This document shows positions 11,730 to 51,652 of a DNA stretch of 64,000 bases, piece after piece. Source of the stretch: a virus; the IMG/VR virus record IMGVR_UViG_3300010965_000427, positions 1 through 64,000 of that record. One strand, written 5' to 3'. The translations under genes and the position numbers were made by a program. How positions within the stretch are numbered: position 1 is the stretch's first letter; each line of letters starts with the position of its first letter. The notes beneath the pieces are model-generated. The model was not told where the DNA came from, did not search any database, and saw only the letters and a program-made list of their open reading frames with translations.

Positions 11730-11800
11730 AAAAATAGTCACATATAAACAAATAGACATAACCTTATCATAATGGTAAGAGTGTCTCAATTTGACTGGAG
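11730..11800 (+). promoter_or_regulatory. phage promoter motif (CATATA) + conserved leader hairpin copy 1 + SD
   Basis: TAGTCACATATAAACAAAT-AGACATAACCTTATCATAATGGTAAGAGTGTCT-...CTGGAG. Confidence 0.75.
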
Positions 11801-11806
11801 AATGAC

Positions 11807-12211
11807 GTGGCAATAAAAAGAAACGGCAAGGTGATTTCCACTCGAGAAGCAGCTGCCGACGTTTTGAAAAGTAAAACAGCTGAAAAAAACAGAATCAAGC
11901 TGCCTAGGGCGCCCTCTTTTATTGTTGAAGAAGAGGAGGCGGAGGGCAGAGGTTTTCGCGAAAATCCTCTTTATAGCATTCTTAAAGACATCAGAAACCC
12001 GCCGTTAAAAGAAATTACTATCGGGGGCGCAACGGAAGTGACAATTCAACCGGAAAAGTCGGCTAAGCCAGAAAAACCCGCTAAGCCAGAAAAACCCGCT
12101 GAGCCAGAAAAACCCGATGAGCTGAAAAAAAAGGAGGCTAGCCAGCCGCCTTCTACGTCTCGCAGGACATGGAAAACCCCGACTCAATATTTCTATGGAA
12201 CGTTCGGGTAA
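11807..12211 (+). CDS. hypothetical protein with PEKPAK repeats
   Basis: GTG start after GGAG; 18-bp tandem repeat at ~12050-12120. Confidence 0.65.
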   Translation: MAIKRNGKVISTREAAADVLKSKTAEKNRIKLPRAPSFIVEEEEAEGRGFRENPLYSILKDIRNPPLKEITIGGATEVTIQPEKSAKPEKPAKPEKPAEPEKPDELKKKEASQPPSTSRRTWKTPTQYFYGTFG

Positions 12212-12230
12212 ACAACGCTTCAGATTAGAC

Positions 12231-12288
12231 TTATACGCCAACCTGCCATTTACTGGCGGGTTGGCGTATAAAATGATTATTTTTTTTA
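12231..12288 (+). terminator. intrinsic terminator
   Basis: TTATACGCCAACCTGCCA...TGGCGGGTTGGCGTATAA then T-run; implies the ORF-track start at 12195 is wrong. Confidence 0.7.
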
Positions 12289-12347
12289 CATTGTGTGATC
12301 TTTTGGACAAGCCAATACGTCCGACTACTAAAGAGAGAAGTAACTTC

Positions 12348-13832
12348 ATGCCTGTAGTTAATACAACTTTACCAGAAGTAGAACAATCAACAAGCCGCCC
12401 TATTATTTTTTCAGTTATAAATGAAATAATTGAAAGAACCGGATTACCAAAAGATATTCGTATTTTTTTTCCTGGCGATAGCGCTAAAATGGCGCAAGCC
12501 GGCACTACAATTGAAGATAACGATAGAACCCCTTTATTATCTAGTAAACAATTGTTATTTATAGAAGTAGAAGAAGCTTTTAATAGATCCTTGGTTGGAA
12601 CCTCTGCTATATCTAGACAAGAACATTTGCCAGTATTTATAGATTACCAAGTAGGCGTTCAACTGCGCCCTATTTATGCAACCACAAATGTAATAATTCG
12701 TATTCGTTTTCAATCTATTAGTAAAAATGAAGTAATTAGGTGGCATAATCAATTTTTTATGAAAATTACTCAATTGCAAGATCAGTTTGTTCATAGTTTT
12801 AAATATCATTATGCACTAACGGATGGCATTTTATCTTTGTTAGAAATAATACATCGGTATAGAGAAGCAATTGAGCCATATGGTGAAGAATTTGTAGATT
12901 ATGTTAAAACACGCATGACAGAAAGATTGACTACATTGGGCGACATGGCCGGAAAAGATTGGAAATTAGCAATAGCAGAAACTCAATCTAGAATTTTAGG
13001 TCGTTTTAATTTTGATACTTTGCCTGAAAAAATGGAGCATGAGGACGACAAAAGCGGGTGGGCAGGATCGGTAGAATATGAATTTACATATGAAAAACCT
13101 ATTGGCTGCATTATAGACTATCCGATATTTGTCCATAATAGATTATTACCAAAAGAGTATATTTTACCTACTTTAGATAACGATAATATTAATACAGCCC
13201 CTGTTCGTTATAGTCAGTCCTTTAATTCACTTTCTTATTTCGAAGTTCCAAATATGCAAGATGAATTTATTATGAATTCAAAATATTATAAACTGCCATT
13301 TTTTGATGATTTTATTCCAAACAAAACACTGCCAGGCACATCGCCTATATTTATTGCGCTTTGCCAAGTTGAAAGCGTTAGCAAAAAAATATTAATTAAT
13401 TTAACTAAATTAGACGAAATTCAACTTAACCCGTCAATCGTTAATTTTATAATAAATTCAGAATACCCGTATCTAACGACTTTATATTCATCGGTTATTC
13501 AAGTCAATTTATACAGAGATAATTCTTTATTGATAAAAAATACATTAACGTGCTCTAATAGAGGGATTATTTCTGCTGTAACTGCATTAAATTTAAGACA
13601 AGTCCATAGGGTTTGTTTCTCTATCGTTACAGATTTAACATTATTAACTTCTGCGGCTCTTGCTAGATTACAACTTTATCCAGATGTTTTTGATTTAATT
13701 CAAAAACTTATAGAAAAAACAACTAATTATCAAAACGATTACATTGGAGGAAAAACTATTATGGCCAACGTAATGCAATCAACAATTATTGCGATGCGTA
13801 AAAATCCATCCTCTGCTTCAGAATTGCTTTAA
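12348..13832 (+). CDS. virion structural protein, phiKZ gp98-like
   Basis: Start MPVVNTTLPE downstream of the terminator; RPIIFSVI and YPIFVHN motifs; synteny. Confidence 0.6.
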   Translation: MPVVNTTLPEVEQSTSRPIIFSVINEIIERTGLPKDIRIFFPGDSAKMAQAGTTIEDNDRTPLLSSKQLLFIEVEEAFNRSLVGTSAISRQEHLPVFIDYQVGVQLRPIYATTNVIIRIRFQSISKNEVIRWHNQFFMKITQLQDQFVHSFKYHYALTDGILSLLEIIHRYREAIEPYGEEFVDYVKTRMTERLTTLGDMAGKDWKLAIAETQSRILGRFNFDTLPEKMEHEDDKSGWAGSVEYEFTYEKPIGCIIDYPIFVHNRLLPKEYILPTLDNDNINTAPVRYSQSFNSLSYFEVPNMQDEFIMNSKYYKLPFFDDFIPNKTLPGTSPIFIALCQVESVSKKILINLTKLDEIQLNPSIVNFIINSEYPYLTTLYSSVIQVNLYRDNSLLIKNTLTCSNRGIISAVTALNLRQVHRVCFSIVTDLTLLTSAALARLQLYPDVFDLIQKLIEKTTNYQNDYIGGKTIMANVMQSTIIAMRKNPSSASELL

Positions 13833-13841
13833 GAGGCCCGT

Positions 13842-15170: not shown

Positions 15171-15194
15171 CAATTTTCAAAAGAGAAATAACAA

Positions 15195-15839: not shown

Positions 15840-15846
15840 AAAGAAT

Positions 15847-17199
15847 ATGAACAACCTTGCTGTTTTTCTGAAAGCTAATCAATCCGCAAAATTAGCAGAA
15901 GACATAGATTCCACATATGTTGCTTTGGAAACATTAATTGAAACTTCGGAGTTTGTTAGAACTTCATTGCCAAACGGATTAGATTTAAATAGCGGTAAAA
16001 TTTTAGGAATTCATATTAACAGTTTATGCAGACGTTTAAATTTACCATCAGAAAATATGATTCCAGCTTGCGAAGCTTTTGAATGTCCTTTTACTAATAA
16101 AGCAGCAACAAGTATTTCCATGGAAGGAATGCTTGAAAATATTAAAATTACATTAATTGCTATTTATAAAGCCATCATCAGATTTATAGAAGAAGTAAAA
16201 GGGCATTTAGTTAATGGATTTGAAGACCATAGACAACGAGTTAGAAATGAAAAAATTTCTAAGTTAAATAAAGAACTTAGCGAATTATTAACTGCGGCGT
16301 CAAGAAGCGATATCGATTATCAAAAAAAGTACGGGGCTAGAGAATTAGCTGGCAGTGAATTATTAGCTCGCAATTTTACATACAACGGAAAAGCAGATGG
16401 TTCTACCGTTGAACATTATCTTAATAATACATCTCAAACATTAGATTTGTTTTTAAAATTTGAACCAGTAATGCAACAAATTGTTAGAAATTTTGTAACA
16501 GGATTTAATAATCTTAGATCTGAATTAGACGTAAATCTTAAAAATAAAATAGTGGGAGATCAAAATACCATCGACGGGGAAAGAATAATAGAAAATGTTT
16601 CTAAGTTATATGAAGGAACTTTAGATGTATTTGAAGAATTTGTAAAACATCATTTTAAAAAACGAACTGTAACGGAGTTTAGCAGACTCGTTCATGGCGA
16701 TTACGAAGGATATAGTGTTTATAGCGCTATTGACATGCCGGGGCCGTCTGTTGCTTTAGTTTTTATAAATGATAAAAAAGATAAAATACTTCCGCATTTT
16801 GAATCTATTACAATTGCAGAAGGTCTTTTCCCTATTGCTATTATTTCTCCGACATTTGAAGAATTAGGGCATTTGGTAAAAAAGGACATTTCTATATTTG
16901 GCGCTAATGCGCAAAGACTTAGCGGAAATATTAAACGATATGAAAGTGCATTAAATATAGTGCAAAAAATTCTGGGGGATTTAATTGGCAGCTACGACAC
17001 TTTCAATAATCCCGATTTTCATAAAGAAGAAGCAGTTAGGCAGGCTAGGCGCGCTTATAAAGAATTGCCAAGTTTTATGAGGCGCTGCGTCATCGGGCTA
17101 TTTTCAAATACAGCTTCTCAAATTTCAAAAGCTAGTGATTTATCAAACTCGTATTTAATAAAATCAGGCAAAGCATTCAAAGTTTCTTATGAACGATAA
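15847..17199 (+). CDS. internal head protein paralog (gp93/gp162-like family)
   Basis: N-terminal propeptide similar to the 10275 protein (GL..SGKILGI..L..RL..P..EAF...ISMEG). Confidence 0.6.
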   Translation: MNNLAVFLKANQSAKLAEDIDSTYVALETLIETSEFVRTSLPNGLDLNSGKILGIHINSLCRRLNLPSENMIPACEAFECPFTNKAATSISMEGMLENIKITLIAIYKAIIRFIEEVKGHLVNGFEDHRQRVRNEKISKLNKELSELLTAASRSDIDYQKKYGARELAGSELLARNFTYNGKADGSTVEHYLNNTSQTLDLFLKFEPVMQQIVRNFVTGFNNLRSELDVNLKNKIVGDQNTIDGERIIENVSKLYEGTLDVFEEFVKHHFKKRTVTEFSRLVHGDYEGYSVYSAIDMPGPSVALVFINDKKDKILPHFESITIAEGLFPIAIISPTFEELGHLVKKDISIFGANAQRLSGNIKRYESALNIVQKILGDLIGSYDTFNNPDFHKEEAVRQARRAYKELPSFMRRCVIGLFSNTASQISKASDLSNSYLIKSGKAFKVSYER

Positions 17200-17204
17200 A
17201 TAAA

Positions 17205-17227
17205 ACAGACATATATACTTATTATGC
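17205..17227 (+). promoter_or_regulatory. phage promoter motif
   Basis: GACATATATACTTATTATG, same family as other cassette promoters. Confidence 0.55.
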
Positions 17228-17273
17228 TGCTGCAATAATTATTATAATAAAAATTTTAACCGTAGAGAAAAAT

Positions 17274-17567
17274 ATGAATAATGCTCACGCAACAAAACTA
17301 GTAAGGTCCATTCTGGAAAAAGAAAACCCTTCAGCAAAAAGAGCAAATAACTATGTTTTAATTCAGGAAGAAATAAATGAAACTTCTAAACTTTCATTTG
17401 AACTGAAGCCTCCGGTCGTAATACATGAATCGTGGCAATTGCAATCTGGAGAAACTACATCTGGTCTAAGAATTCACGTTGGAAAAGAATGGCTTAAAAG
17501 TAAAATTTTAGAATCAACGTTAGAAGTAATCGATTCGCTTGGAACTACCGGGCAACTCGTAATTTAA
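17274..17567 (+). CDS. hypothetical protein
   Basis: 97-aa ORF after promoter motif. Confidence 0.6.
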   Translation: MNNAHATKLVRSILEKENPSAKRANNYVLIQEEINETSKLSFELKPPVVIHESWQLQSGETTSGLRIHVGKEWLKSKILESTLEVIDSLGTTGQLVI

Positions 17568-18722: not shown

Positions 18723-20102
18723 ATGAAGCCTTTTGAAAAATCGGTGCTTTGGCCCGATGTCCAGCGAGTTATGAAAAATGGAGATACTTCTCTTAGATTT
18801 GAATATACAGGGGAATTACATACTGAAAAGAAAAACATAAAAATAGTAAAAATAATTTCTTTTGACATAATTAGAGATTATGTTAATTCAATTGGTGATC
18901 AATTTTATATAGAGTTTATGATTGGTTTGGGGGATTATGCGATCGATCTTTATCCGTTTCGTAATAATTTAGAATTTACACTTTTTAGTAGAGAACTTAC
19001 AGATCTTAGCGATTCTACTAAGAAAAATAAACCAAAAAAAGAAGAACGATTCAAAGCAGTCTTTTTAATTGAAGAAAATAAATCAATTAGAGCTTCTGAA
19101 TATGAAAATTTTGATATTTTTACATTAAATGTATCTGATGTTGTTACCGTTAAGCTCCAGCTTCTTAACAGATCGCTTGAGCCCATTAGAATAAAAACTA
19201 CCGGAGGAACATTTGCAAATGTTACAAACGAGGATCTATTAAAATCGATTATTTCTTCCGAATGTTTAAAGATAACGGTAGACGGCAAACCATCTTTGGA
19301 CGGTTTGGATATGGTGGAAGCTGATAATAAAGATAACCAAACTCAATTGCTTATACCTCATTCTACTTTAATAGTAAATCTTCCTATTTATTTACAGGGA
19401 CAAAAAACAGGAGTTTATAATGCAGGAATTGGAAGTTATATTCAAAGTTACGACGATAGAATGACATGGTTTATATACCCACTTTTTAATCCAACTCGTT
19501 TAAATTCAAAAAAGAAAAAAGCTATTTTTTATTCAGTTCCTAAAAATCGTTTTCCGGGAATAGAAAAAACATATAGAACTACACAAGGAGTGGTTTATAT
19601 ATTAGCAACAGGAGGAAAAGGATATAGAAGCACTGGAGAAACTGACATGATGAATTCTGGTGCAGGATACAGGATGACAGATTCTAGGTCAATTATGAAA
19701 AAACCTGTTGAGATGACTGCCGATGGACCAGTCGCCAATAGGAATCAATTAAACCACGAAGTAGCAACAATTCAAAGAAAAGATGGCTTAAACTATGCGC
19801 CTATCGCTAGCCGCCCAATATCGTCTAATCCGTTTTTACAATCCAGCCAAGTGTTGCAAAGAAGAGGAGCTAGAATTGATTTTACATGGATAAATGCTAA
19901 GCCTTCCTTATTATATCCTGGCATGCCTTGTCAGTTTATATTTTTAGACAAAGACGATAAAGCAAAAGAAGTAGATGGAATTTTGTTATTTGTACATTGC
20001 TATACAGAAATGTCCGGGAAAGGTTTAATGACCAGCTCTCACACAACTTCATGCCAAATCACTTTATTTGTAGCAGAAATGGAAGAAGTAGCAACTGAAT
20101 AG
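18723..20102 (+). CDS. virion structural protein, phiKZ gp101-like (possibly baseplate hub)
   Basis: RDYVNSIGD, GVYNAGIGSYIQ, WFIYPL, LLYPGMP motifs. Confidence 0.6.
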   Translation: MKPFEKSVLWPDVQRVMKNGDTSLRFEYTGELHTEKKNIKIVKIISFDIIRDYVNSIGDQFYIEFMIGLGDYAIDLYPFRNNLEFTLFSRELTDLSDSTKKNKPKKEERFKAVFLIEENKSIRASEYENFDIFTLNVSDVVTVKLQLLNRSLEPIRIKTTGGTFANVTNEDLLKSIISSECLKITVDGKPSLDGLDMVEADNKDNQTQLLIPHSTLIVNLPIYLQGQKTGVYNAGIGSYIQSYDDRMTWFIYPLFNPTRLNSKKKKAIFYSVPKNRFPGIEKTYRTTQGVVYILATGGKGYRSTGETDMMNSGAGYRMTDSRSIMKKPVEMTADGPVANRNQLNHEVATIQRKDGLNYAPIASRPISSNPFLQSSQVLQRRGARIDFTWINAKPSLLYPGMPCQFIFLDKDDKAKEVDGILLFVHCYTEMSGKGLMTSSHTTSCQITLFVAEMEEVATE

Positions 20103-20117
20103 ATTATGTTGAAAAAA

Positions 20118-20190
20118 TAAATAGCCACATATAAACAAATAGACATAACCTTACTACGACTGTGAGAGTGTCTTAATCTGACTGGAGAAT
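20118..20190 (+). promoter_or_regulatory. promoter motif + leader hairpin copy 2 + SD
   Basis: TAGCCACATATAAACAAAT-AGACATAACCTTACTACGACTGTGAGAGTGTCT-...CTGGAG. Confidence 0.75.
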
Positions 20191-20195
20191 CTATT

Positions 20196-20618
20196 ATGAA
20201 AAAATTAGTTAAAGATGAAGTCGATGCGCAAAGCCCAGAGATAAAAGACGCGGCTCCTCTTCGTGTAGATGGAACTCCTTTTTGGATTGTCAATGAATTT
20301 AATTTCCACGGAGAAGGCATAACCGCATTTGCAATTGCTTATGGTGTGCACATAAACACCGAATGCATAATGCATCGGTTTAGTGAAAAAAGATACACTC
20401 TTTATTGGAGAGCAACAACTGGTTTAAGTTCTATTTATGAGAATAAACAAACAGGACCAGACAGCTGCGTTGACGACCCAGAAAACAAATGGACTCTTGG
20501 ACAAGAGGTGGATTGGCCATTGAACGTAAAGCTGGCTTGGGACGATATTTTTAAATACCTGGAAAAAAGCGGAGTGAGTAAAATTACTGGAAAAACAGAA
20601 TTCAAAACGACGGCATAA
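20196..20618 (+). CDS. hypothetical protein
   Basis: 140-aa single-gene cassette with SD and terminator. Confidence 0.7.
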   Translation: MKKLVKDEVDAQSPEIKDAAPLRVDGTPFWIVNEFNFHGEGITAFAIAYGVHINTECIMHRFSEKRYTLYWRATTGLSSIYENKQTGPDSCVDDPENKWTLGQEVDWPLNVKLAWDDIFKYLEKSGVSKITGKTEFKTTA

Positions 20619-20639: not shown

Positions 20640-20701
20640 TTATAAAGCTAACTTGCATTTCATTGCAAGTTAGCTTTATAAATTAAAAATATATTTTTTT
20701 T
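20640..20701 (+). terminator. intrinsic terminator
   Basis: TTATAAAGCTAACTTGCA...TGCAAGTTAGCTTTATAA. Confidence 0.7.
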
Positions 20702-20704
20702 GAA

Positions 20705-20776
20705 AAAAATGGTCGCATATATTTAATATGGCGCAACTTTACTATGACAGTAAAAACGCTTTGATTTGAATGGAGA
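20705..20776 (+). promoter_or_regulatory. promoter motif + covaried leader hairpin copy 3 + SD
   Basis: GGTCGCATATATTTAATAT-GGCGCAACTTTACTATGACAGTAAAAACGCT-...GGAG. Confidence 0.65.
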
Positions 20777-20781
20777 ACGAC

Positions 20782-22224
20782 ATGCAAAATGTATTTATTG
20801 GTAATTGCCAGCCAACTGCTGATAACGCCGTGTTAAAATTGTTTGCAGCTGGAGATTATATTGTTGATTGGGGGGATGGCTCCGAAGAAACTTTTCAGGC
20901 AAATTCAGTAGCCTCTCATGTTTATTCAATTTTCCGTCCAATGACAGTTAAGATTAAACCGCAATCAGGCTCTTTATTAGCTGTTTTAAATTTTAAAGTT
21001 CTGGTTAATAATTGTATAAATTTTACAGAAATTAATGTGGAATGTGGGGATTTAGAAATTCTAAAATTCAATGCCAATGAGCTATGTAAGGTTTCATTGA
21101 AAAAAAATAAAATTAAAAATTTTACTGGTATGTTTAGTGGTTGCCATAAAAATATTAGTTTTTCAGAATTATATACTTCACATGGAAAAAATTTTGATGA
21201 AATGTTTAATAATTGCTACGAAGCTACAAGCTTTCCAGAGCTGAATACCTCAAATGGCGAAAACTTTCGTGGGATGTTTAGTGGCTGCTCTGGGGCAACT
21301 AGTTTCCCGGAATTAAACACCTCGAGAGGAAAAAATTTTGGCGCAATGTTTAGTGGCTGCTTTGGAGCAACTAGTTTCCCGGCGCTAAACACCTCATCAG
21401 GAGAGAGCTTTGGCGGAATGTTTTACGGCTGTTTTAATGCCAAAAGCTTCCCGGAATTAAACACCTCGAAAGGAAAAGACTTTGGTGCAATGTTTTATGG
21501 CTGCTCCAAAGCAAGCGGCTTTCCAATGCTAAACACCTCAAAAGGAGAAAGTTTTGTTGCAATGTTTCATGGTTGCTCTGGCGCCAAAAGCTTCCCGGAA
21601 TTAAATACCTCGGCAGGAAAAAACTTTGGCGCAATGTTCTATGGCTGCTCTGGAGCCAAAGGCTTTCCGGAATTAAACACTTCAGCAGGAAAGAGTTTTG
21701 ACGAAATGTTTTATGGCTGCTCTGGAGCCAAAGGCTTTCCGGAATTAAACACTTCAGCAGGAAAATACTTTATAAATATGTTTTCTGGTTGCTTTGGAGC
21801 AACCAATTTCCCACTATTAGATACCTCAGCAGGAAAAGATTTCTATGGGATGTTTAATGGCTGCTCTGGGGCAACTAGTTTCCCGGCGCTAAACACCTCA
21901 TTAGGAGAGAGCTTTGGCGGAATGTTTTACGACTGCTTTAATGCCAAAAGCTTTCCAACACTAAACACCTCGGCAGGAGAAAGCTTTGATGGGATGTTTA
22001 ATGGCTGCTCTGGGGCAACGAGTTTCCCAGCGCTAGATACCTCAGCAGGAACAAGTTTTGACAAAATGTTTTACGGCTGCTCTGGAGCCAAAAGCTTTCC
22101 AGAACTAAACGCCTTGGCAGGAGAAAGCTTTGATAGGATGTTTGGTGGCTGCTGTGGAATCACGATCATTCCAGCTATAAATATTCCAGCTAAAAGCAAT
22201 ATTAGTAAAATGTTTAACGACTAA
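20782..22224 (+). CDS. PKD-like domain + ~15 x 24-aa DUF285/BspA-type repeats
   Basis: YIVDWGDG N-domain; repeats FPELNTSxGxxFxxMFxGCxxAxS; start reassigned to ATG after GGAG. Confidence 0.85.
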   Translation: MQNVFIGNCQPTADNAVLKLFAAGDYIVDWGDGSEETFQANSVASHVYSIFRPMTVKIKPQSGSLLAVLNFKVLVNNCINFTEINVECGDLEILKFNANELCKVSLKKNKIKNFTGMFSGCHKNISFSELYTSHGKNFDEMFNNCYEATSFPELNTSNGENFRGMFSGCSGATSFPELNTSRGKNFGAMFSGCFGATSFPALNTSSGESFGGMFYGCFNAKSFPELNTSKGKDFGAMFYGCSKASGFPMLNTSKGESFVAMFHGCSGAKSFPELNTSAGKNFGAMFYGCSGAKGFPELNTSAGKSFDEMFYGCSGAKGFPELNTSAGKYFINMFSGCFGATNFPLLDTSAGKDFYGMFNGCSGATSFPALNTSLGESFGGMFYDCFNAKSFPTLNTSAGESFDGMFNGCSGATSFPALDTSAGTSFDKMFYGCSGAKSFPELNALAGESFDRMFGGCCGITIIPAINIPAKSNISKMFND

Positions 22225-22294
22225 TGAACTGAGTGTTTGATTAATTAGGTTACTGTGGCTAACAAAGGTGACAATAACCTAAATTTTTTTATTA

Positions 22295-22322
22295 AATTAC
22301 AGCCATATATACTTAATATGAG
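22295..22322 (+). promoter_or_regulatory. phage promoter motif
   Basis: CAGCCATATATACTTAATATG after T-run/ATTAAA. Confidence 0.6.
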
Positions 22323-29631: not shown

Positions 29632-30273
29632 ATGTTCAAAGATCCTAGGTTAGTTTCAAAATTTTATAAAGAATTCCAAGTTGGAAAATTATATTTTTAC
29701 AAAATTTACTACCCGTTTAATAAACCGTCTGGTTGTTTTGTTTGTTTTAAACGAGACAATAGTTTAATTATACAGTATTCAAATATTTCACTTTCCGAAC
29801 AATTATATAATATTGTAAATTGTGAAGAAAACGATATACCCTTAAAATCAGATTTTGAGGTTACGTATTGGAATAGCAGAAACGAAGTAGAATGCGTAAT
29901 TAGCTATTGGATTTATTTAAAAAAGCAACTCCAAAATTTAGATTCAAATTTAAAAGAAAAAGATTTATGTAAAAATAAAATGGAAAATATCGATCAAATT
30001 TTAGCATCAATGATGAAAAGTCTGTTTCGTAATTTTGACTTTAAATATAAAATTCCATTAAGAGATTTAAATATGCCAATAGAATGGATAAGAATGGCCA
30101 TTTATTATGGAATTATTATTGAAGATGTTTCATCTAGCGATTTGACAGCCGGATGGTATTTAACTAACTTTGGAATTGCTCTCAGAGCACAATTCGATTG
30201 GCTAGAATTAAGCCAAAAAATAAACACAGAAAACTATCAAGAATTAAAAACGGTGTTACAAATTAAAGCATAA
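29632..30273 (+). CDS. hypothetical protein
   Basis: 213-aa ORF. Confidence 0.6.
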   Translation: MFKDPRLVSKFYKEFQVGKLYFYKIYYPFNKPSGCFVCFKRDNSLIIQYSNISLSEQLYNIVNCEENDIPLKSDFEVTYWNSRNEVECVISYWIYLKKQLQNLDSNLKEKDLCKNKMENIDQILASMMKSLFRNFDFKYKIPLRDLNMPIEWIRMAIYYGIIIEDVSSSDLTAGWYLTNFGIALRAQFDWLELSQKINTENYQELKTVLQIKA

Positions 30274-30279
30274 TGAATA

Positions 30280-30308
30280 AAAAAATGGTCACATATATTA
30301 AAATTACT
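30280..30308 (+). promoter_or_regulatory. phage promoter motif
   Basis: AAAAAATGGTCACATATATTAAAATT. Confidence 0.55.
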
Positions 30309-31033: not shown

Positions 31034-31054
31034 GAAAGTCAAAAAATAAGTTTT

Positions 31055-31101
31055 TAAACTACTAGAAAAGCCATTGGCTTTTCTAGTAGTTTAATTTTTT
31101 T
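31055..31101 (+). terminator. intrinsic terminator
   Basis: TAAACTACTAGAAAAGCC...GGCTTTTCTAGTAGTTTA + T-run. Confidence 0.8.
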
Positions 31102-31104
31102 ATT

Positions 31105-31178
31105 AAAATATAACTACATATATTTAATATGACACAACCTTACTATGGTAGTAAGAATGTCTTAATTTCACCGGAGAT
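31105..31178 (+). promoter_or_regulatory. promoter motif + leader hairpin copy 4 + SD
   Basis: CTACATATATTTAATAT-GACACAACCTTACTATGGTAGTAAGAATGTCT-...CCGGAG. Confidence 0.75.
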
Positions 31179-31182
31179 CGGC

Positions 31183-32955: not shown

Positions 32956-33019
32956 CCAACGCAAAAAATAAAAAATAAACTGCTAAAGTTGCTATAACTG
33001 AAGTGGTTTATTTTTTATT

Positions 33020-33050
33020 AAAAAATAATCTCATATACTTAATTTGATTC
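33020..33050 (+). promoter_or_regulatory. phage promoter motif
   Basis: AAAAATAATCTCATATACTTAATTTG. Confidence 0.55.
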
Positions 33051-33098: not shown

Positions 33099-34208
33099 AT
33101 GACAGAATTATTCGTAGGCATTTGTTCCCCGACAACCGCCATTAACACATTAACATTTATAGCAGACGGAGATTGCTTTGTCAAATGGGGAGATGGAACA
33201 ACTGAATATATTAATAAATGGGATTTAGCAGCTCATACCTACTCTGATCTAGTCCATAAAGTAGTAGAAATTTCCCCTCGGCCAGGATCTTCAATAACCA
33301 GTTTAGATTTTAAAACTAATCAAAGAAACAATATTTGTTTTTTCGCAATAAGCGTAAATTGTAAAAATTTAAAAGTGTTAAAATTTATTCCGTATGAATT
33401 AGTTACCGTGTCTATATTAGAAAATAAAATTAGTGATTTCTCTAGAATGTTTAGTGACTGTAAATACAGTATAAATATCTTAGAATTAAACACATCGCAT
33501 GGAACAGATTTTAAAAGAATGTTTAATGGATGCCGTGCGCATATTTCGATTCCAAAAATGAACACTTCAAAAGGAGTTGATTTTTCGCACATGTTTGGAA
33601 ATTGTAGAAAATTCACTAGCTTTCCGGAACTAGATACGTCATCTGGGATAAACTTTACAGGAATGTTTTATAATTGCAATGAAGCCGTTTGTTTTCCTAA
33701 TTTAAATACCTCAAAAGGCTTGGATTTTTCATGGATGTTTTATGGGTGCCGTAAAGTTTCTAGTTTTCCTCCTATGAACACTTCTTCTGGAGACGATTTC
33801 TCGGGGATGTTTTACGATTGTTCTGGAGCAGTTAGCTTTCCAGATTTGGATACTTCGTTAGGAAAAGATTTTTCATCAATGTTTTATAATTGCTACGGTG
33901 CTTCTAAATTTCCTAAATTAAATACTTTATTGGGAGAATTATTTTTCACAATGTTTAAAAACTGCTATAATGCTACTGAATTTCCAGCACTTAACACATC
34001 AAAAGGTTTAGATTTTTCAGGAATGTTTTGTAACTGTTATGCCGCTTGCGTTTTTCCTGAAATGGACACTTCAAAAGGTTTAGACTTTTCTGAAATGTTT
34101 TGCGGTTGTAATAAAGCAGTTACATTTCCTAAATTAATAATTTCAGATGAAGCTCACACTTCTGGAATGTTTGAAGGATGTAATAAAACTAGCTCCAATA
34201 AAATATAG
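33099..34208 (+). CDS. PKD-like domain + ~11 x 24-aa DUF285/BspA-type repeats
   Basis: MTELFVG...CFVKWGDG; repeat units as above. Confidence 0.85.
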   Translation: MTELFVGICSPTTAINTLTFIADGDCFVKWGDGTTEYINKWDLAAHTYSDLVHKVVEISPRPGSSITSLDFKTNQRNNICFFAISVNCKNLKVLKFIPYELVTVSILENKISDFSRMFSDCKYSINILELNTSHGTDFKRMFNGCRAHISIPKMNTSKGVDFSHMFGNCRKFTSFPELDTSSGINFTGMFYNCNEAVCFPNLNTSKGLDFSWMFYGCRKVSSFPPMNTSSGDDFSGMFYDCSGAVSFPDLDTSLGKDFSSMFYNCYGASKFPKLNTLLGELFFTMFKNCYNATEFPALNTSKGLDFSGMFCNCYAACVFPEMDTSKGLDFSEMFCGCNKAVTFPKLIISDEAHTSGMFEGCNKTSSNKI

Positions 34209-39514: not shown

Positions 39515-39522
39515 TATTTGAA

Positions 39523-39575
39523 TTTAGCTAGATAGAGCCATACGGCTCTATCTAGCTAAATAACCTATTTTTTTA
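39523..39575 (+). terminator. intrinsic terminator
   Basis: TTTAGCTAGATAGAGCC...GGCTCTATCTAGCTAAA. Confidence 0.75.
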
Positions 39576-39577
39576 CA

Positions 39578-39627
39578 ATTATATATAATAAATAAGACAT
39601 AACCTTACTACAATAGTAAGAGTGTCT
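39578..39627 (+). promoter_or_regulatory. promoter motif + leader hairpin copy 5
   Basis: TATATAATAAATA-AGACATAACCTTACTACAATAGTAAGAGTGTCT. Confidence 0.75.
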
Positions 39628-39655
39628 GTAATCAAAAAACTAAAGGCGGATAATC

Positions 39656-39997
39656 ATGCAGCCAAAAATCACCCAACCATTTCTTAATTTCCAACCGGCA
39701 TTTTTGTCGTACGACGAAAGAAGGAATATGTTTAAAGTATATATGGATGTAGAAGAAAAAGCTCGTTTTGAATGGCCTCATTTCATAATGACCTCGTCAA
39801 AATGGAGACCGGAAGAGGAAGAAACTACTGGGGCTTGGATGGCAAAATACGAATTGAGAGATAAAAACGATATGAAAATACAAAAATCCGAAATTGAAAA
39901 ATGGCTGCCAGGCAAGGATGTTTTAGTCTTTCAGCCAGTCTTAGCCATTTTTTCAAGTGATAAACCAGATGTTATCTTTAGCTTAGCCCCTCCATAA
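39656..39997 (+). CDS. hypothetical protein
   Basis: 113-aa single-gene cassette. Confidence 0.7.
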   Translation: MQPKITQPFLNFQPAFLSYDERRNMFKVYMDVEEKARFEWPHFIMTSSKWRPEEEETTGAWMAKYELRDKNDMKIQKSEIEKWLPGKDVLVFQPVLAIFSSDKPDVIFSLAPP

Positions 39998-40017: not shown

Positions 40018-40076
40018 TTTAAACACTGTGCGACTAAAGTGAAAACTTTAGTCGCACAGTGTTTAAATTTTTTTTA
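40018..40076 (+). terminator. intrinsic terminator
   Basis: TTTAAACACTGTGCGACTAAAGT...ACTTTAGTCGCACAGTGTTTAAA + T-run. Confidence 0.8.
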
Positions 40077-40081
40077 TTAAA

Positions 40082-40150
40082 ATATAGGCACATATATTTA
40101 ATATGACACAACTTTACTATGGTAGTAAGAATGTCTTAACCTGTTTGGAA
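40082..40150 (+). promoter_or_regulatory. promoter motif + leader hairpin copy 6
   Basis: GGCACATATATTTAATAT-GACACAACTTTACTATGGTAGTAAGAATGTCT. Confidence 0.75.
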
Positions 40151-40156
40151 TGTATT

Positions 40157-41191
40157 ATGTCAGAATTATTTATTGGCCATTGCGAGCCAACTGCTTTCAA
40201 TAGCACGTTAGCATTCTTAGTCGCCGGAAACTGCATTGTAAATTGGGGCGACGGAGTTACTGAGACTTTCAAAGCAAATACGCTTGCCTATCACGTTTAC
40301 TCTAAATATCAGCCAATAACTGCGCTAATAACTCCGCGGCCTGGTTCTCATTTAACTATTTTAGAATTTAATGCCGAGTATGGCTGCAATGTCTATTTTA
40401 CTAATATAAATGCGCAGTGCGAACATCTAGCGGTATTAAATTTTAATCCTAGTCAGCTAGCTTCTATTTCAATAGGAAAAAATAAAATTAAAGATTTCTC
40501 TGGGATGTTTTATAACTGCTCCAAAGCCGTGAATTTTTTAGAACTATTTGTGTCTGAAGGAATTAACTTTTCTGGAACATTTAGCAATTGTTGTAAAATT
40601 ACCAGTCTCCCACTGCTGGATACTTCCAAGGGAACAAACTTTCAAGGAATGTTTAACGGCTGCTCTGAGATCGCCAATTTCCCAAAAATAAACACTTCAA
40701 AAGGAAAAAATTTTAGAGGAATGTTTAACGGTTGTTCCAAAGCAAAAAGCTTTCCAGAATTAGATACTTCAGTTGGAATGGATTTTAGCTGGATGTTTGG
40801 TAATTGTTCTGGAGCTACCGGTTTTCCAAAGTTAAACACTTCTAATGGAACAAACTTTCAAGGAATGTTTGTAGGCTGTTCTGGGGCCACTAGCTTTCCA
40901 GATTTAAATACTTCTGCTGGCATTTATTTTAAAGGAATGTTTGACGGCTGTTGTAAAGCTGTGGGTTTCCCAGAGTTAAATACTTCAAAAGGAATTGACT
41001 TTACATGGATGTTTGCAGGCTGTTCTGAAGCCACCAGCTTTCCAGATTTAAATACTTCTGCTGGCATTTATTTTAAAGGAATGTTTGGAGGCTGTTTTAG
41101 GGCCGTTAATTTTCCAGAACTAGATATTTCAAAAGGAAAAGACTTTAGAAAAATGTTTTATAACTGTAATATAAAAAAAAGTAAAAAATAA
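40157..41191 (+). CDS. PKD-like domain + ~10 x 24-aa DUF285/BspA-type repeats
   Basis: MSELFIG...CIVNWGDG; repeat units; start reassigned by paralog alignment. Confidence 0.85.
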   Translation: MSELFIGHCEPTAFNSTLAFLVAGNCIVNWGDGVTETFKANTLAYHVYSKYQPITALITPRPGSHLTILEFNAEYGCNVYFTNINAQCEHLAVLNFNPSQLASISIGKNKIKDFSGMFYNCSKAVNFLELFVSEGINFSGTFSNCCKITSLPLLDTSKGTNFQGMFNGCSEIANFPKINTSKGKNFRGMFNGCSKAKSFPELDTSVGMDFSWMFGNCSGATGFPKLNTSNGTNFQGMFVGCSGATSFPDLNTSAGIYFKGMFDGCCKAVGFPELNTSKGIDFTWMFAGCSEATSFPDLNTSAGIYFKGMFGGCFRAVNFPELDISKGKDFRKMFYNCNIKKSKK

Positions 41192-41281: not shown

Positions 41282-42418
41282 ATGAAAAATTACCTCTCTC
41301 TGCTAAATAGCATAGTGTACGACGGAGATACACACGAAGACAGGACAGGCGTAGGACGAAGAAGCCTATTTTCTGCCGAGCTACGATATAATCTTGCGGA
41401 TGGATTTCCACTAGTAACAACTAGAAAAATTCCTATACGTCCTTTTATAGGCGAAATACTTTGGCATTTAACCGGCAGTAAAGACATACGCTTTCTTAAT
41501 GAAAATAAAATAAAAATTTGGGATGAATGGGCAGTTAATAAAAATCATATAAAAGACTTTATTGAAAATGTAATATTAAAAAAATTAATTACAAAAGAAG
41601 AACCAGAATCCGAGTCATTATCACAAATGATGAATATTCAGGCAATGCCGTTTTATGAGCATTTTGGAAATTCAATAGGACCTATATACGGTCCTAATTG
41701 GAGAGCTGCTCCTGGATCTGAATATAATCCCTTTAGAAAAGTCACTCCGCACGAAGACATCGAGAAAAAACGTTTACTAAATTTAAGAGCTGAATACATA
41801 AATTATTTAAAATTTATTAAAAATGATAAAAACAATGCTAGTCCATTAACAGAAGAGGAATTTATCGAACAAAACGTGCAATCAAATATAGACCAAGTGC
41901 AAAATTTATTAAATGGTTTAAAAAAACGTCCATGGTCTTCCAGGCACGTAATTTCATCATGGGTGCCAGAATGCATTCCGGATGAAGAATTGCCTCCTCA
42001 GTATAACGTTATTTTAGGAAAAGGGGCACTGGCTCCTTGTCCAATGACCCAACAATACTTTGTAACTCCTCCAAAAACTCCAAAAGATCTTCCCAGACTT
42101 TCCTTAAAAGTAACTAGCAGGTCGTGCGATTTTGTTCTTGGGGGACCTACCAATATAGCGGAATATTCGTTGTTAGTAAGTATGATTGCTCAAATAGTGA
42201 ATATGGAGCCTTATGAATTTATTTTTTCAATGGGCGATGTGCATATATACACTAATCAAATAGAAACGGCAAAGAAACAGTTAGATAGAGACCCAAAACC
42301 TTTGCCAAAATTAGTATTAAATAAAAATATTATAGACCTCTTTGATTTTACATTTGGCGATATTTCTATTGACGATTATAAATATCATCCGGTATTAAAG
42401 TATCCTATTTCTGTATAA
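41282..42418 (+). CDS. thyA: thymidylate synthase
   Basis: DRTGVG, FPLVTT, IWDEWA, GPIYG, ALAPC, RSCD, NIAEY, GDVHIY. Confidence 0.93.
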   Translation: MKNYLSLLNSIVYDGDTHEDRTGVGRRSLFSAELRYNLADGFPLVTTRKIPIRPFIGEILWHLTGSKDIRFLNENKIKIWDEWAVNKNHIKDFIENVILKKLITKEEPESESLSQMMNIQAMPFYEHFGNSIGPIYGPNWRAAPGSEYNPFRKVTPHEDIEKKRLLNLRAEYINYLKFIKNDKNNASPLTEEEFIEQNVQSNIDQVQNLLNGLKKRPWSSRHVISSWVPECIPDEELPPQYNVILGKGALAPCPMTQQYFVTPPKTPKDLPRLSLKVTSRSCDFVLGGPTNIAEYSLLVSMIAQIVNMEPYEFIFSMGDVHIYTNQIETAKKQLDRDPKPLPKLVLNKNIIDLFDFTFGDISIDDYKYHPVLKYPISV

Positions 42419-46662: not shown

Positions 46663-46701
46663 AAAAAGCATCTTTTCTACGTTTGACACCAGGGCCTAAA
46701 A

Positions 46702-48918: not shown

Positions 48919-48950
48919 ACCTCTCACTACTGAATCTGTAGGTTAGGTCT

Positions 48951-49008
48951 CCTCCCGCCAGACCAGTTTAGGCTGGTCTGGCGGGAGGCGTATTTTTTTT
49001 TGTTTTTT
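48951..49008 (+). terminator. intrinsic terminator of capsid gene
   Basis: CCTCCCGCCAGACCAG...CTGGTCTGGCGGGAGG + T-run. Confidence 0.85.
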
Positions 49009-49035
49009 TACAATAAAATTAAATAAAGCCTATAT

Positions 49036-49064
49036 AAAAAAATAGTCGCATATACTTCATATGC
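49036..49064 (+). promoter_or_regulatory. phage promoter motif
   Basis: AAAAAATAGTCGCATATACTTCATATG; followed by a different hairpin (TTTGGTTTA/TAAACCAAA). Confidence 0.65.
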
Positions 49065-49118
49065 TGTTTGGTTTAGTTTGTAAACCAAATTACAAATAAC
49101 AAATAAAGGTAAAAACCA

Positions 49119-49682
49119 ATGACTTTTAATGCTATTAACGAAGACTCTTCCAGTTGGGAAATTATTGCTGAAATTTCCACTGGAACAGCTTTATCTTTTT
49201 TAAAAAACGAAACCCAACTAGAAGCTCCATTTGGAGTTTCTAAAGAAAAATTGAATGAGTCTATATTAGAAGAAAAATGGAAAAATAATCACAGAATTTA
49301 TATGAGATGCGACGCTATTGCAAATACATCCTTTCAAATAAGTATGTTAAAAACCCAATTAGCAATATATCTATGCAAAAAAAGTAAAGATAAATTAATA
49401 GTAGAAAGGCCGTTTATTTTAATTGAAGGTTTGGTTTATTTTGGAGAAGCCAGACTTAGAGGATCAGATGGTTTTGAGTTATTGCTGGCATTTCCGGAAG
49501 GTTATTTTTCATGCAAAGAACCTCCAGGGCAAAGAAAATATAGTATGCTCGGCTATGCTTCTGGAGTAATGGGCCAAGGATTAAAATTTAACCCATTGCT
49601 TAAATTGTGTGAAGAATGGGAATTCCTTGCCGACGATCAACCGATTGCATCAATGCCAGATAGACCGGTAATCTTGCTATAA
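49119..49682 (+). CDS. hypothetical protein; C-half paralogous to 51656 ORF
   Basis: LVYFG...LAFPEGYF...GVMGQGLKFNPLLKLCEEWEFL. Confidence 0.65.
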   Translation: MTFNAINEDSSSWEIIAEISTGTALSFLKNETQLEAPFGVSKEKLNESILEEKWKNNHRIYMRCDAIANTSFQISMLKTQLAIYLCKKSKDKLIVERPFILIEGLVYFGEARLRGSDGFELLLAFPEGYFSCKEPPGQRKYSMLGYASGVMGQGLKFNPLLKLCEEWEFLADDQPIASMPDRPVILL

Positions 49683-49764
49683 ATTCATGTGGTTGCGTGG
49701 TTATAAAGCTAAGTTGTTATTTGTAACCACGTAATCGCATGAATCAAAAAGAGATCTGCAAAAA

Positions 49765-50268
49765 ATGATAGAAACAGAACATCAATTTCGCGTCATTACC
49801 GAAACTCCAGAACCTTATAAAACATTACAAAAATTATCGGAAAACCCAAACTTTACTTATCATTTAACAGACATGCTTTTCTTTGTTGGTTTTTGCGTGG
49901 TGCCTCCTATTTATATATTCTTTTGTGAAAATACGGCTGAACAATTATTATTTCTAAATTCATTAGGTTTTAATATTTATAATAATGATTTAGAATTTAA
50001 TGATAAAATGCCAATGCAAGATAGTTTAACAAAATACATTTATGTTCACAACGAATCAAAAATAGCAATAGAAGTAGTAACAAATATAGATATAAAAAAG
50101 AAAGCACAATTATCGTTATTAAATAAAATTCGTTTAGAAGAAAGAACTAGAGCAGTAAAAATTAAAACAATGTTTTTAACTTATAATCAATTGCAAAAAC
50201 AAAAAGAATGGAATAAAACGATTCAAGAAGAGCGGAACAAAGCAATGGCTGAAAAAAGAAAAAAATGA
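49765..50268 (+). CDS. degenerate nucleotidyltransferase-like protein, paralog 1
   Basis: YHLTD..FF...YIFF...FL.SLGF pattern shared with 50265 and 52027. Confidence 0.5.
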   Translation: MIETEHQFRVITETPEPYKTLQKLSENPNFTYHLTDMLFFVGFCVVPPIYIFFCENTAEQLLFLNSLGFNIYNNDLEFNDKMPMQDSLTKYIYVHNESKIAIEVVTNIDIKKKAQLSLLNKIRLEERTRAVKIKTMFLTYNQLQKQKEWNKTIQEERNKAMAEKRKK

Positions 50269-50762
50269 TTAACCTAGAAAGTTTTACACCAACTTTAAAT
50301 TTAGAACCGCTAAATACACTAATAAAACTTATTTCTAATAACGATTATGTTTATTTCTTAACAGATTCTAGATATATCGAATCTAAATTTTGTAGAAAAA
50401 TTCAAAACTCTATTTCCCACGAATGGATATTTTTTGCAGATTATTCTTTAGAACATGTAGAATTTTTAAAGAATATTGGTTTTTATTTATACGAGGATGG
50501 AACATTTATACACACAGATTCAGATATTTTAACACATTCCATTTATGGCCATGATGATTCAAACGTTTACATCCAACTTGTAATTGATATTGAATTAAAA
50601 AAAGCGGCGTTAGATTTAATTGTAGAAAATATTATTGCAGAGCAATCCAATATTTCACACCCTTTGCAGAACGCATTTATAAACTCCGATGATGTATTAA
50701 TGAGAGAAGCTTGGAATTGTGCAATAAGAACTTGTAGAAAAATTAATAATGAGAATGCATAA
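50265..50762 (+). CDS. degenerate nucleotidyltransferase-like protein, paralog 2
   Basis: YFLTDSRY...HEWIFF...FLKNIGF...IQLV resembles LTGSR..DxD NTase motifs. Confidence 0.5.
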   Translation: MINLESFTPTLNLEPLNTLIKLISNNDYVYFLTDSRYIESKFCRKIQNSISHEWIFFADYSLEHVEFLKNIGFYLYEDGTFIHTDSDILTHSIYGHDDSNVYIQLVIDIELKKAALDLIVENIIAEQSNISHPLQNAFINSDDVLMREAWNCAIRTCRKINNENA

Positions 50763-51315
50763 TTTGTTTTACATTATTTATAAAAAACTTTTTAGAATTA
50801 AATCACACATTGAAATAATTGAAGAAGATAATTCAAATTTGATCCGCTTTGGGGATCTTTATCAAGGAGATTGGTTTTATAAAAATAGACATTTTTGCCA
50901 AGTTGTTACCAGAACCAAACAATGTTACAGTGTATTAAATCCCAATTCCGCTTTATTTAGTAGAACTGGTAAAATCTCATTAGACAGTTTCAATTATAAA
51001 GATCTGGTCGTTCCAATTAAGTGCAAATATAGCTTTACAACTAACAATCTTTTATCAACTAATAAATCAGATTTTTCAGAATTTTTAACGGAATTTTATA
51101 TGCCGTCATTATTTGAATGTTTAAATAACAATCAACCATTCTGGCACTGCCGTCTTAAATGTTTCGGAATCGTAGTCCCTTATAAAAGAAACCCAGTTAA
51201 TTACTCAATGCCCAATTCTTTATTAATCTTTTCAGATGATTCTTTGCGCACAGAAACAATGCGCGCTTGTGAAGCTGTTGTTCCTATTAACAAAGTAATA
51301 GTTAAAAAACTTTAA
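50749..51315 (+). CDS. hypothetical protein
   Basis: 188-aa ORF; two internal F.xL..g..F...V.P-type halves. Confidence 0.55.
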   Translation: MRMHNLFYIIYKKLFRIKSHIEIIEEDNSNLIRFGDLYQGDWFYKNRHFCQVVTRTKQCYSVLNPNSALFSRTGKISLDSFNYKDLVVPIKCKYSFTTNNLLSTNKSDFSEFLTEFYMPSLFECLNNNQPFWHCRLKCFGIVVPYKRNPVNYSMPNSLLIFSDDSLRTETMRACEAVVPINKVIVKKL

Positions 51316-51602
51316 TGAAAGATTTTAAACATAAAGTTTTAATGGAAAACCCTGAGCAAACTTTAAAAATAATATTAGAATTGTGTGAAGATAATAATTT
51401 TGGCCAAATGCACTATTATGTTCCATTAAAAACAGTTACATTAGATGGCGTAGAAATTATTGTTGACGAAGACGACCCAAAAGGTCGGTTTTATTTAATA
51501 GAATCGATGAATGAAAATGACACTGGCCATCATTATAATGATACTTTTGAAGTAATTGCTCACATTTTAAGATTGAAAAATAAAATAATTACATATACAT
51601 AA
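51315..51602 (+). CDS. hypothetical protein
   Basis: 95-aa ORF, translationally coupled. Confidence 0.6.
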   Translation: MKDFKHKVLMENPEQTLKIILELCEDNNFGQMHYYVPLKTVTLDGVEIIVDEDDPKGRFYLIESMNENDTGHHYNDTFEVIAHILRLKNKIITYT

Positions 51603-51652
51603 AGCGACATAGCCTTATCATAACGGTAAGAGTGTCTTATTCTAACTGGAAA
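51588..51652 (+). promoter_or_regulatory. promoter motif + leader hairpin copy 7 + SD
   Basis: ACATATACATAAAGC-GACATAGCCTTATCATAACGGTAAGAGTGTCT-...CTGGA. Confidence 0.7.

Follow-up and report, generated by a model that had tools for sequence, protein, structure and literature searches.

Covarying stem-loops at the predicted transcript start of a repeated promoter cassette in an uncultured phiKZ-like jumbo phage

One short stem-loop recurs at a fixed distance behind a promoter-like motif along a stretch of viral DNA, and the genes that follow it belong to several families; the question is what kind of element this is, how it came to be present so many times, and what it might do for messages that would begin with it. 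The stretch analysed (the window) is the first 64 kb (64,000 nt) of the 121,727-bp virus contig G000 (IMG/VR record IMGVR_UViG_3300010965_000427; G+C 34%), and the element is called R1, after the covariance model of the hairpin. R1 is a new RNA motif family, apparently restricted to this lineage and without a counterpart in Rfam. The leading interpretation, put forward tentatively, is that R1 would be a transcribed 5'-terminal stem-loop in a mobile terminator-promoter-leader cassette, burying the 5' end and in this way stabilising early messages.

Seven copies had been described in the window by the original prediction, and all are present on the plus strand at the positions it gave. Each folds singly into a two-helix hairpin, with minimum free energies (MFE) of -5.8 to -10.7 kcal/mol and z-scores of -1.2 to -4.25. 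Copy 1 at 11754..11786 (-10.1 kcal/mol, z -3.8; 59.7 bits) has a 6-bp outer stem, an AAC/A internal loop and a 7-bp inner stem, copy 2 lies at 20141..20173 (-9.4 kcal/mol, z -2.6; 53.1 bits), and copy 3 at 20730..20760 (-6.0 kcal/mol, z -1.6; 47.3 bits) is the richest in compensatory changes within the window. Copies 4 to 7 lie at 31131..31161 (-8.0 kcal/mol, z -2.0; 57.1 bits), 39595..39627 (-10.7 kcal/mol, z -4.25; 54.9 bits), 40105..40135 (-5.8 kcal/mol, z -1.2; 54.2 bits), and 51606..51636 (-9.5 kcal/mol, z -3.5; 49.9 bits). The general anatomy, over a length of 31-33 nt, is an outer stem of 5-6 bp, an AAY x A (3 x 1 nt) internal loop, an inner stem of 6-7 bp, and a variable loop of 3-7 nt. 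As had been claimed, the GACA arm begins exactly 8 nt after (C/T)ATATA in 7/7 copies.

When at most 2 mismatches are allowed, CATATA-N8-RRCRYARCYTTAY occurs 7 times, always on the plus strand, against a mean of 0.09 and a maximum of 1 in 100 dinucleotide-preserving shuffles. The 37-position model R1, which describes just the hairpin, was scanned over all of G000 with filters off and finds exactly nine copies, all on the plus strand, at 47.3-59.7 bits. The next score is 19.5 bits, from the antisense of a copy, and everything else is at or below 14.6 bits. The two copies outside the window lie at 121146-121182 and 121678-121714, also on the plus strand. Nine copies are found in a second IMG/VR contig, G001 (66.6 kb), the minus strand of which begins within the last G000 cassette and which continues the same or a nearly identical phage; one copy is common to both, giving 17 distinct cassettes in about 188 kb. 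Diverged G001 copies score only 24-30 bits against R1. The earlier count was therefore right about all seven, but there are more copies in both G000 and G001.

Covariation in the R1 hairpin is real. For the 15 distinct copies compared (165 pair cells), RNAalifold recovers unaided the outer stem, AAC/A internal loop and inner stem that had been proposed from the window alone, and 9/11 pairs carry compensatory double changes, so that this claim too holds up. Paired cells make up 95.8% of the 165, with 19 double-change cells, and 0/500 shuffles match the observed pairing, the pairs or cells with double changes, or the covariation score; further pair types show no excess (91/500 shuffles). When partners are slid by 1-3 columns, pairing drops to 33-61%. 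Among G001 copies the outer stem has been rewritten from GACAU/GUGUC to AAUGU/GCAUU and the inner stem from CUUAC/GUAAG to UUUGC/GCAAA or UUCAU/AUGAA, and the fold is kept across a tandem four-gene array with proteins only 28-39% identical.

The loops had been said to vary freely, and this is accurate for the terminal loop, where positions carry 0.5-0.8 bits each, but not for the internal loop, the unpaired bases of which are the most conserved of the element (A8 15/15, A9 14/15, A28 15/15). Structure is conserved over sequence, as in 5' stabilisers, with the caveat that the internal-loop bases are conserved as well. Read as the sense strand, the pair cells comprise 140 Watson-Crick pairs, 18 G.U pairs, and 7 mismatches, and as the antisense strand 140, 4, and 21, respectively; the 18 G.U pairs against 4 indicate that pairing in the sense strand is favoured.

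A search of Rfam 15 with its covariance models gave no match at the gathering thresholds, and at E<=10 it gave 13 matches, none over a copy, which agrees with its not having been recognised as a known RNA family in the original prediction. An initial exact-pattern scan of IMG/VR returned 9 loci; those outside G001 were rejected for lack of a 3' arm, leaving only the G001 loci as real. A degenerate pattern scan of viral contigs likewise pointed to G001 only, and 9 metagenome-contig loci that it returned are chance matches by model R2 (best 21.9 bits). Model R2 had no match in the relative G002, nor in the capsid-gene neighbourhoods of 43 relatives, 805,380 bases in all. Because R2 finds none in these relatives and no real ones elsewhere, R1 appears to be lineage-restricted within the sequences searched. 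No leader hairpin in jumbo-phage early transcripts is described in the literature searched, a search that did not extend to supplementary tables of transcription start sites (TSSs), which possibly hold data on 5' untranslated regions.

By its gene content, the source is an uncultured phiKZ-like jumbo phage. G000 codes for a phiKZ-type major head protein (phrog_3231, E 7e-174) and for two beta-type subunits of RNA polymerase (RNAP), phrog_2986 (E 6e-193) at 110551-112245 and phrog_3148 (E 0) at 112264-116577, which together place it among phages with a multisubunit (split) RNAP. No cultured phage comes close: among 50,697 phage records, megablast with 12 kb of the window as query gave no match, and the nearest cultured capsid protein by tblastn is that of Burkholderia phage FLC9, at 46.5%. 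A capsid protein identical to that of G000 is also encoded on a 218,742-bp contig; the CheckV completeness estimates are 45% for G000 and 24% for G001. The original prediction had spoken of a nucleus-forming phage, and this lifestyle is plausible given a homologue of chimallin (phiKZ gp54, the nuclear-shell protein) in G001 (locus L108, 20877-22103, minus strand), with E 3.7e-24 and 26% identity; the homologue has about 634 aa, in an open frame of 645 aa. Upstream of this homologue no CATATA promoter was found; a 13-bp hairpin lies immediately 5' of its ribosome site.

What precedes the hairpin is a promoter-like element with the core AGTCA-(C/T)ATATA, and the hairpin begins at a conserved purine 8 nt 3' of that core. 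A position weight matrix (PWM) of the upstream 38 nt of the nine R1 copies, scanned on G000, identifies 18 promoter-like sites of the class, all on the plus strand. Nine of these carry R1 and the other nine, without the hairpin, score 17.6-23.9, while the best minus-strand score is 15.8. With nine hairpin-less sites, the promoter class is broader than the hairpin, about half of it with R1. Hairpin-less sites on the plus strand of the window include 17180..17226 (PWM 18.0), 22274..22320 (19.0), 30260..30306 (21.0), and 33000..33046 (23.9), which heads a fourth DUF285-like paralogue at 33099-34208. Just 3' of the major head gene is another plus-strand site, 49017..49063 (18.6), with a different hairpin from about 5 nt in. 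The minus-strand blocks of G000 (for example 2063-6074, 58495-61203, and 67512-79742) hold large structural genes and no promoters of the class.

The core, together with T(-1)G(+1), recurs in the capsid neighbourhoods of relatives with 32-57% G+C and 32-58% capsid identity. The consensus is AAAAAATAGTCACATATACTTAATATG, and in relatives a PWM at a threshold of 14 bits has 30 matches compared with 2 in reversed-sequence controls. An AGTCA-CATATA-N8-G promoter stands directly behind the capsid gene, a late gene, both in this phage, at 49049, and in several distant relatives (loci L066-L107, many around 12100-12400). The features by which jumbo-phage early promoters are recognised, namely an AT-rich element, a fixed purine downstream, and a position before small genes, are all present here. 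According to published reports, such promoters were found bioinformatically as a highly conserved AT-rich element near -10 in front of early operons, the TSS of phiKZ and phiR1-37 lies 6 nt 3' of the conserved element, and the AR9 consensus is AAATATATATTAT-N6-G(+1) (PMC7598289, PMC5312081). Also described are T-rich DNA 5' of -19 in phiKZ early promoters (PMC8244752) and the placement of 201phi2-1 early promoters before hypothetical genes (PMC11512511). The class described here thus shares with the early promoters of phiKZ, 201phi2-1, and AR9 the AT-rich element near -10, T-rich DNA upstream, the fixed downstream purine, and the small hypothetical genes that follow. With phiKZ it also shares a conserved leader and ribosome site repeated after the promoter, but the phiKZ core is TATATTAC-N6-G rather than AGTCA-CATATA-N8-G, and phiKZ leaders are mostly without a 5' hairpin.

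Where transcription would begin relative to the hairpin can be approached through relatives without one. In these the conserved G is 20-22 nt from the start codon (for example L087 at 12156, L077 at 12162, and L089 at 5308), so the start cannot be far downstream of the G. In the R1 cassettes the distance from the end of the hairpin to the start codon is 19-21 nt in 12/17 with script-called starts, or 13/17 if the second ATG of cassette 3 is used. Because the hairpin-to-ATG spacing equals the G-to-ATG spacing of the hairpin-less relatives, the hairpin looks like a 5' extension of a standard leader. We infer from this that the hairpin is probably transcribed, with its first paired base at, or 1-2 nt from, the 5' end of the RNA. 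Support for placing the hairpin at the likely +1 is indirect, coming from analogy with the mapped jumbo-phage early promoters and from these hairpin-less leaders.

Hairpins are also found at the same position in relatives, although they are not R1. Hairpins were scored by a metric that takes no account of the downstream sequence, requiring -6 kcal/mol or lower and a first paired base no more than 3 nt from the G. Of the 25 distinct promoters of relatives, 13 qualify, compared with 18 of 175 windows displaced by -60 to +36 nt (Fisher p 3.8e-6); when the seven paralogous copies of G002 are left aside, the figure is 6/18 (p 0.013). The qualifying hairpins have no common sequence, and the presence of unrelated hairpins at one position across the clade fits a generic structural role. 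G002 itself (144 kb, 47% G+C, 56% capsid identity) has a hairpin of its own, beginning GATCTTAGCC, in 7/7 promoter matches, and this is unrelated to R1. Its repeated cassette (loci L025 and L049-L064, for example L025:167-222) consists of CATATA-N8 or TACATA-N8 followed by GATCTTAGCC, which pairs with GCTGAGATC or, in another register, with GGCTAGATC, at an MFE of -8 to -14 kcal/mol. In G002 about 15 nt after the promoter are kept even where the 3' arm is re-registered or missing, as at locus L057. The G002 cassette further includes a conserved CTTTTTC stretch and a second hairpin 5' of the ribosome site, and G002 has a conserved terminator family, AGCCCAGAGAGC...GCTCTCTGGGCT. In 42 kb around the capsid gene of Burkholderia phage FLC9 no repeated cassette was found, but that region is GC-rich and structural and hence uninformative.

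The hairpin is one part of a larger unit. An ungapped alignment of all 17 cassettes extends from about -40 to +55. Their order, 5' to 3', is a T-run, an A-run, ATAgtcA-(C/T)ATATA, an 8-nt spacer with AT or TA mostly at its end, the hairpin, yAAt, a GGAG-type ribosome site, and the start codon. The whole is roughly 100 nt, with a roughly 20-nt stretch containing the ribosome site after the hairpin. A (C)TGGAG Shine-Dalgarno sequence had been reported after most copies, and GGAG is indeed present in 4/7, but the other three have GGAA or GGCGGA. Cassette 1 (11709..11806) consists of the T/A tract, the AGTCA-CATATA core, the hairpin and CTGGAGA, and heads a 134-aa ORFan with a GTG start (11807-12211). 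Three others in the window also head ORFans: cassette 2 (20096..20195), one of 140 aa at 20196-20618; cassette 5 (39550..39655), one of 113 aa at 39656-39997; and cassette 7 (51560..51655), one of 91 aa at 51656-51931. Cassettes 3 (20684..20781), 4 (31085..31182), and 6 (40059..40156) head DUF285 paralogues, the first with a likely start at 20782 and its end at 22224, the others at 31183-32955 and 40157-41191. All seven are on the plus strand.

A strong terminator-like hairpin lies immediately 5' in 5/7 window copies. On the plus strand these are at 11669..11708 directly before cassette 1, 20640..20681 before cassette 3, 31054..31094 before cassette 4, and 39522..39561 before cassette 5, and at 40019..40066 between the cassette 5 gene and cassette 6. 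Several units look monocistronic, such as 11807-12211, which is followed by a terminator at 12231-12271, and 39656-39997, which is followed by that at 40019-40066.

Copies had been said to precede unrelated genes, and not to be just a by-product of gene duplication. The first of these statements applies to four of the window copies, which head proteins without mutual BLASTP matches, but not to those at 20716, 31117, and 40091, which precede the DUF285 paralogues. All-against-all BLASTP sorts the proteins behind the 17 cassettes into nine families: DUF285 (n=3; Pfam E 5e-19 to 4e-29), tandem families of G001 (n=3, 2, and 4), and five singletons. The four window singletons have no PHROG or Pfam match and the fifth has a marginal PHROG match (E 0.0087); for 5/8 complete G000 cassettes the downstream protein has no PHROG or Pfam match. 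Tandem paralogue arrays (4 families) cover 12/17 cassettes, so part of the copy number is explained by duplication of gene and leader together, and the second statement is half right. It holds for the cassettes at 11741 and 121666, which match almost exactly along some 90 nt, starting at the T-run and ending at the ribosome site, although their flanks are unrelated and the proteins they head have no BLASTP similarity. Near-identical cassettes before unrelated genes fit a cassette that moves or converts independently. Cassettes also sit among structural genes, for example between the gene for an internal head protein and the phrog_3289 and phrog_3013 virion genes.

In mechanistic terms, the interpretation of R1 as a stabilising 5' stem-loop would run as follows. 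The promoter is most likely read early in infection by the phage's own virion-type multisubunit RNAP, and transcription would start at the conserved purine, which is the first base of the stem, leaving the 5' end of the RNA base-paired. An end buried in this way would resist RppH and 5'-end-dependent RNase E or J, and on established knowledge of such ends the messages of early ORFans and accessory genes may live longer. The cassette would spread with tandem gene duplication and also, independently of the genes it heads, by recombination or conversion of its own, in the manner of the PeSL cassettes of T4-like phages. The leaders of E. coli ompA and papA are among the closest known structures, since they too have a short hairpin at the extreme 5' end of the mRNA, 5' of a free ribosome site, with structure under selection. 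The leader of phage T7 gene 10 is another 5'-terminal stem-loop stabiliser. R1 differs from these stabilisers in being a multi-copy family (at least 17) fused to a phage promoter, in its invariant asymmetric internal loop, and in having a 5' end that is predicted. The action of 5' stem-loop stabilisers is explained by the requirement of RppH and RNase E for a single-stranded 5' end (PMC3997798).

Several observations weigh against the stabiliser interpretation. A generic stabiliser leaves unexplained why conservation should peak at the unpaired A8, A9, and A28 when the terminal loop drifts. The copies at 20716, 31117, and 40091 are thermodynamically weak alone (z above -2), the difference in MFE between sense and antisense strands is not significant (p 0.11), and the shuffle statistics overstate independence because all copies are paralogues of one phage lineage. 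The hairpin is also optional, given the nine same-class G000 sites without it, and by the metric applied to the relatives 0/10 hairpin-less sites, namely these nine and a weaker one at 87107, get to -6 kcal/mol. For phiKZ the first 50 kb were scanned with the motif TATAT(T/C)AC, the start being set 6 nt after it; a 5' hairpin is present at only 1/11 motif sites, though these may include sites that are not promoters. The leader conserved in phiKZ has no structure, and because phiKZ leaders are mostly hairpin-less, transcripts of a virion RNAP need no hairpin. The lone hairpin-bearing phiKZ site (locus L037, 45568-45640; -8.8 kcal/mol) lies before the nuclear-shell gene PHIKZ054.

The conserved internal loop is better accommodated if a phage protein, virion-borne or early, binds the AAY/A loop with its flanking pairs and controls translation, decay, shut-off, or trafficking of the tagged early messages. 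This is a possible account, if a doubtful one. A tag for protein binding stays plausible because the internal loop is invariant, because R1 is on just about half of the same-class promoters, as a subset forming a regulon would be, and because each lineage has one homogeneous hairpin (R1 here, GATCTTAGCC in G002), which fits a co-evolving partner. However, the many different single-copy hairpins at +1 in relatives argue that structure rather than identity counts across the clade, the conservation of A8 and A9 can equally be explained by constraints on initially transcribed DNA, and duplication or conversion of the cassette can by itself give homogeneity within a lineage. A more specific version, which we consider rather unlikely, would make the hairpin a lineage-specific 'address label' on virion-polymerase messages of chimallin-encoding jumbo phages, read by a co-evolving phage protein; the label would be R1 with its invariant AAY/A loop here, and an unrelated hairpin in G002. 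If so, labelled messages might be picked for export from the early vesicle, preferential translation, or timed shut-off, and the system would be an RNA-tag regulon without a described phage counterpart. The DNA itself might instead be what matters, with the repeat or its 5' arm aiding recognition or escape by the polymerase, or, in a variant resembling phage N4, with a DNA hairpin and a TSS downstream of it. The 5' arm spans +1 to +16, a region whose sequence can influence initiation, roughly 15 nt after the G002 promoter are kept even with the 3' arm shifted or missing (as at L057), and a TSS within the 19-21 nt after the hairpin is geometrically possible. Set against this, same-class promoters presumably work without the repeat, hairpin-less relatives have only 20-22 nt from G to ATG, and the compensatory changes in the 3' arm and the 18 against 4 G.U pairs indicate pairing in the sense strand rather than in the template strand as in N4. 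Although N4 also links a small inverted repeat to the early promoter of its virion polymerase, its hairpin is a DNA structure of the template strand centred at -11, with a GC-rich heptamer and flanking repeats, used by a single-subunit virion RNAP (PMC4496689). The repeat here lies 3' of the AT-rich core, favours the sense strand, is optional, as nine same-class sites lack it, and occurs in a genome with multisubunit RNAP genes, so a required template-strand hairpin near -11 is not what is found. A DNA-level role is therefore improbable, and of the four functions that the original prediction offered without choosing among them, the DNA hairpin used by the virion RNAP is the one disfavoured, by the strand bias of the G.U pairs, by the roughly half of same-class promoters without a hairpin, and by the different geometry.

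The remaining explanations question the promoter, the function, or the stage at which the RNA would act. If the promoter were an early sigma-70 promoter of the host, with an AT-rich UP element as in T4 PeSL cassettes, the hairpin would still be a 5' leader, and some copies do have TTGAAA or TTGCAA and, about 15 nt on, TATAAA around the CATATA core; T4-type early cassettes share an AT-rich upstream tract (PMC2839356). The hexamer spacing is, however, 15 nt or less and varies among copies, and a consensus scan misses the cassettes and shows no excess of sites (70 compared with 79 expected, and 75 compared with 71). The phage codes for multisubunit RNAPs of its own, and AGTCA beside CATATA and the fixed T(-1)G(+1) are kept in relatives at 32-57% GC, a range that points to a conserved enzyme of the phages more than to the RNAPs of varied hosts, which leaves the sigma-70 explanation unlikely. 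The repeat might also be a passenger, without RNA function and kept only because a cassette of about 100 nt is copied or converted whole. Near-identical cassettes before unrelated genes, and cassettes that flank ORFans among structural genes and are bounded by terminators, are in keeping with this, as is the precedent of PeSL (PMC4122927, PMC2839356). Copying predicts identity or random decay, though, and not double changes in 9/11 pairs, nor would it lead one to expect a fold that persists as protein identity drops to about 30%, or relatives enriched for unrelated hairpins at this position; a mere passenger is thus distinctly improbable. Finally, the nascent hairpin could let the polymerase pass terminators, as do the processive antitermination RNAs of the lambda nut/boxB or HK022 put type. 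Both nut and put sites lie immediately after early promoters, R1 lies right after a predicted early promoter, and strong terminator hairpins are frequent in this genome. Many cassettes nevertheless look monocistronic, ending at a strong terminator before the next promoter, so read-through is not obviously needed, and the two-hairpin architecture of put is absent; antitermination is very improbable. Other roles for the hairpin are not favoured. An attenuator or terminator is rejected for the lack of a U tract and the weak stems, and an RNase III site is deemed unlikely in view of the stem length that enzyme requires, there being just 11-13 bp interrupted by a loop. A peptide-coding hairpin is also rejected, for although an ATG lies in frame at the base of the stem in copies 4 and 6, copy 3 stops after 13 codons, and the conserved N-termini of the paralogues begin at the downstream ATG.

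As a putative mobile unit the cassette most resembles the PeSL of T4-like phages, described in PMC2839356 and PMC4122927 as repeated early promoter and stem-loop cassettes of about 100 bp with an AT-rich tract. These likewise stand before ORFans, sometimes in conserved modules, with their own promoter and terminator, and are near-identical around unrelated genes. PeSL promoters are of the sigma-70 type, and the stem-loop is a terminator around or before the promoter. Here the terminator is separate and upstream, the promoter resembles that of jumbo-phage RNAPs, and the covarying hairpin follows the predicted start without a U tract; the sigma-70 scan misses the cassettes, so neither of these two PeSL traits is found.

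Very little is known of how nucleus-forming jumbo phages handle their first messages, which an injected polymerase makes and which have to last and be translated in a cytoplasm hostile to them. The analysis adds a promoter consensus that holds across the clade of uncultured relatives, a covarying RNA motif that sits at the predicted +1 and is neither in Rfam nor in the literature searched, and evidence for some hairpin at the start of about half of these promoters clade-wide. The R1 cassette combines known ideas, namely the jumbo-phage early promoter, the 5' stabiliser hairpin, and the PeSL-like mobile cassette, and could be the counterpart in jumbo phages of the T4 PeSL cassettes, by which accessory genes are moved. 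If R1 is a stabiliser only, it is a neat yet unsurprising reuse of a known trick. The promoter core with and without the hairpin is a concrete construct for early mRNA stability, tagging, and cassette mobility.

Some minor observations concern the genes around the cassettes. The ORF called mechanically at 12195-13832, after the cassette 1 gene, starts within or before the terminator at 12231-12271; its PHROG match begins at residue 52, and the true start probably lies near 12348. A gene for thymidylate synthase (phrog_160, E 6e-80) is found at 41282-42418 of the window, directly 3' of the cassette 6 DUF285 gene, and as no terminator was detected between the two genes, cassette 6 may head a longer operon. 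The DUF285/BspA-like paralogues are four dispersed genes (20782-22224, 31183-32955, 33099-34208, and 40157-41191) with proteins 50-57% identical to one another; PF03382 is found in three, and phrog_22899 and phrog_34853 in all four. Three are behind R1 cassettes, and one is behind a same-class promoter with a leader that no longer forms the hairpin.

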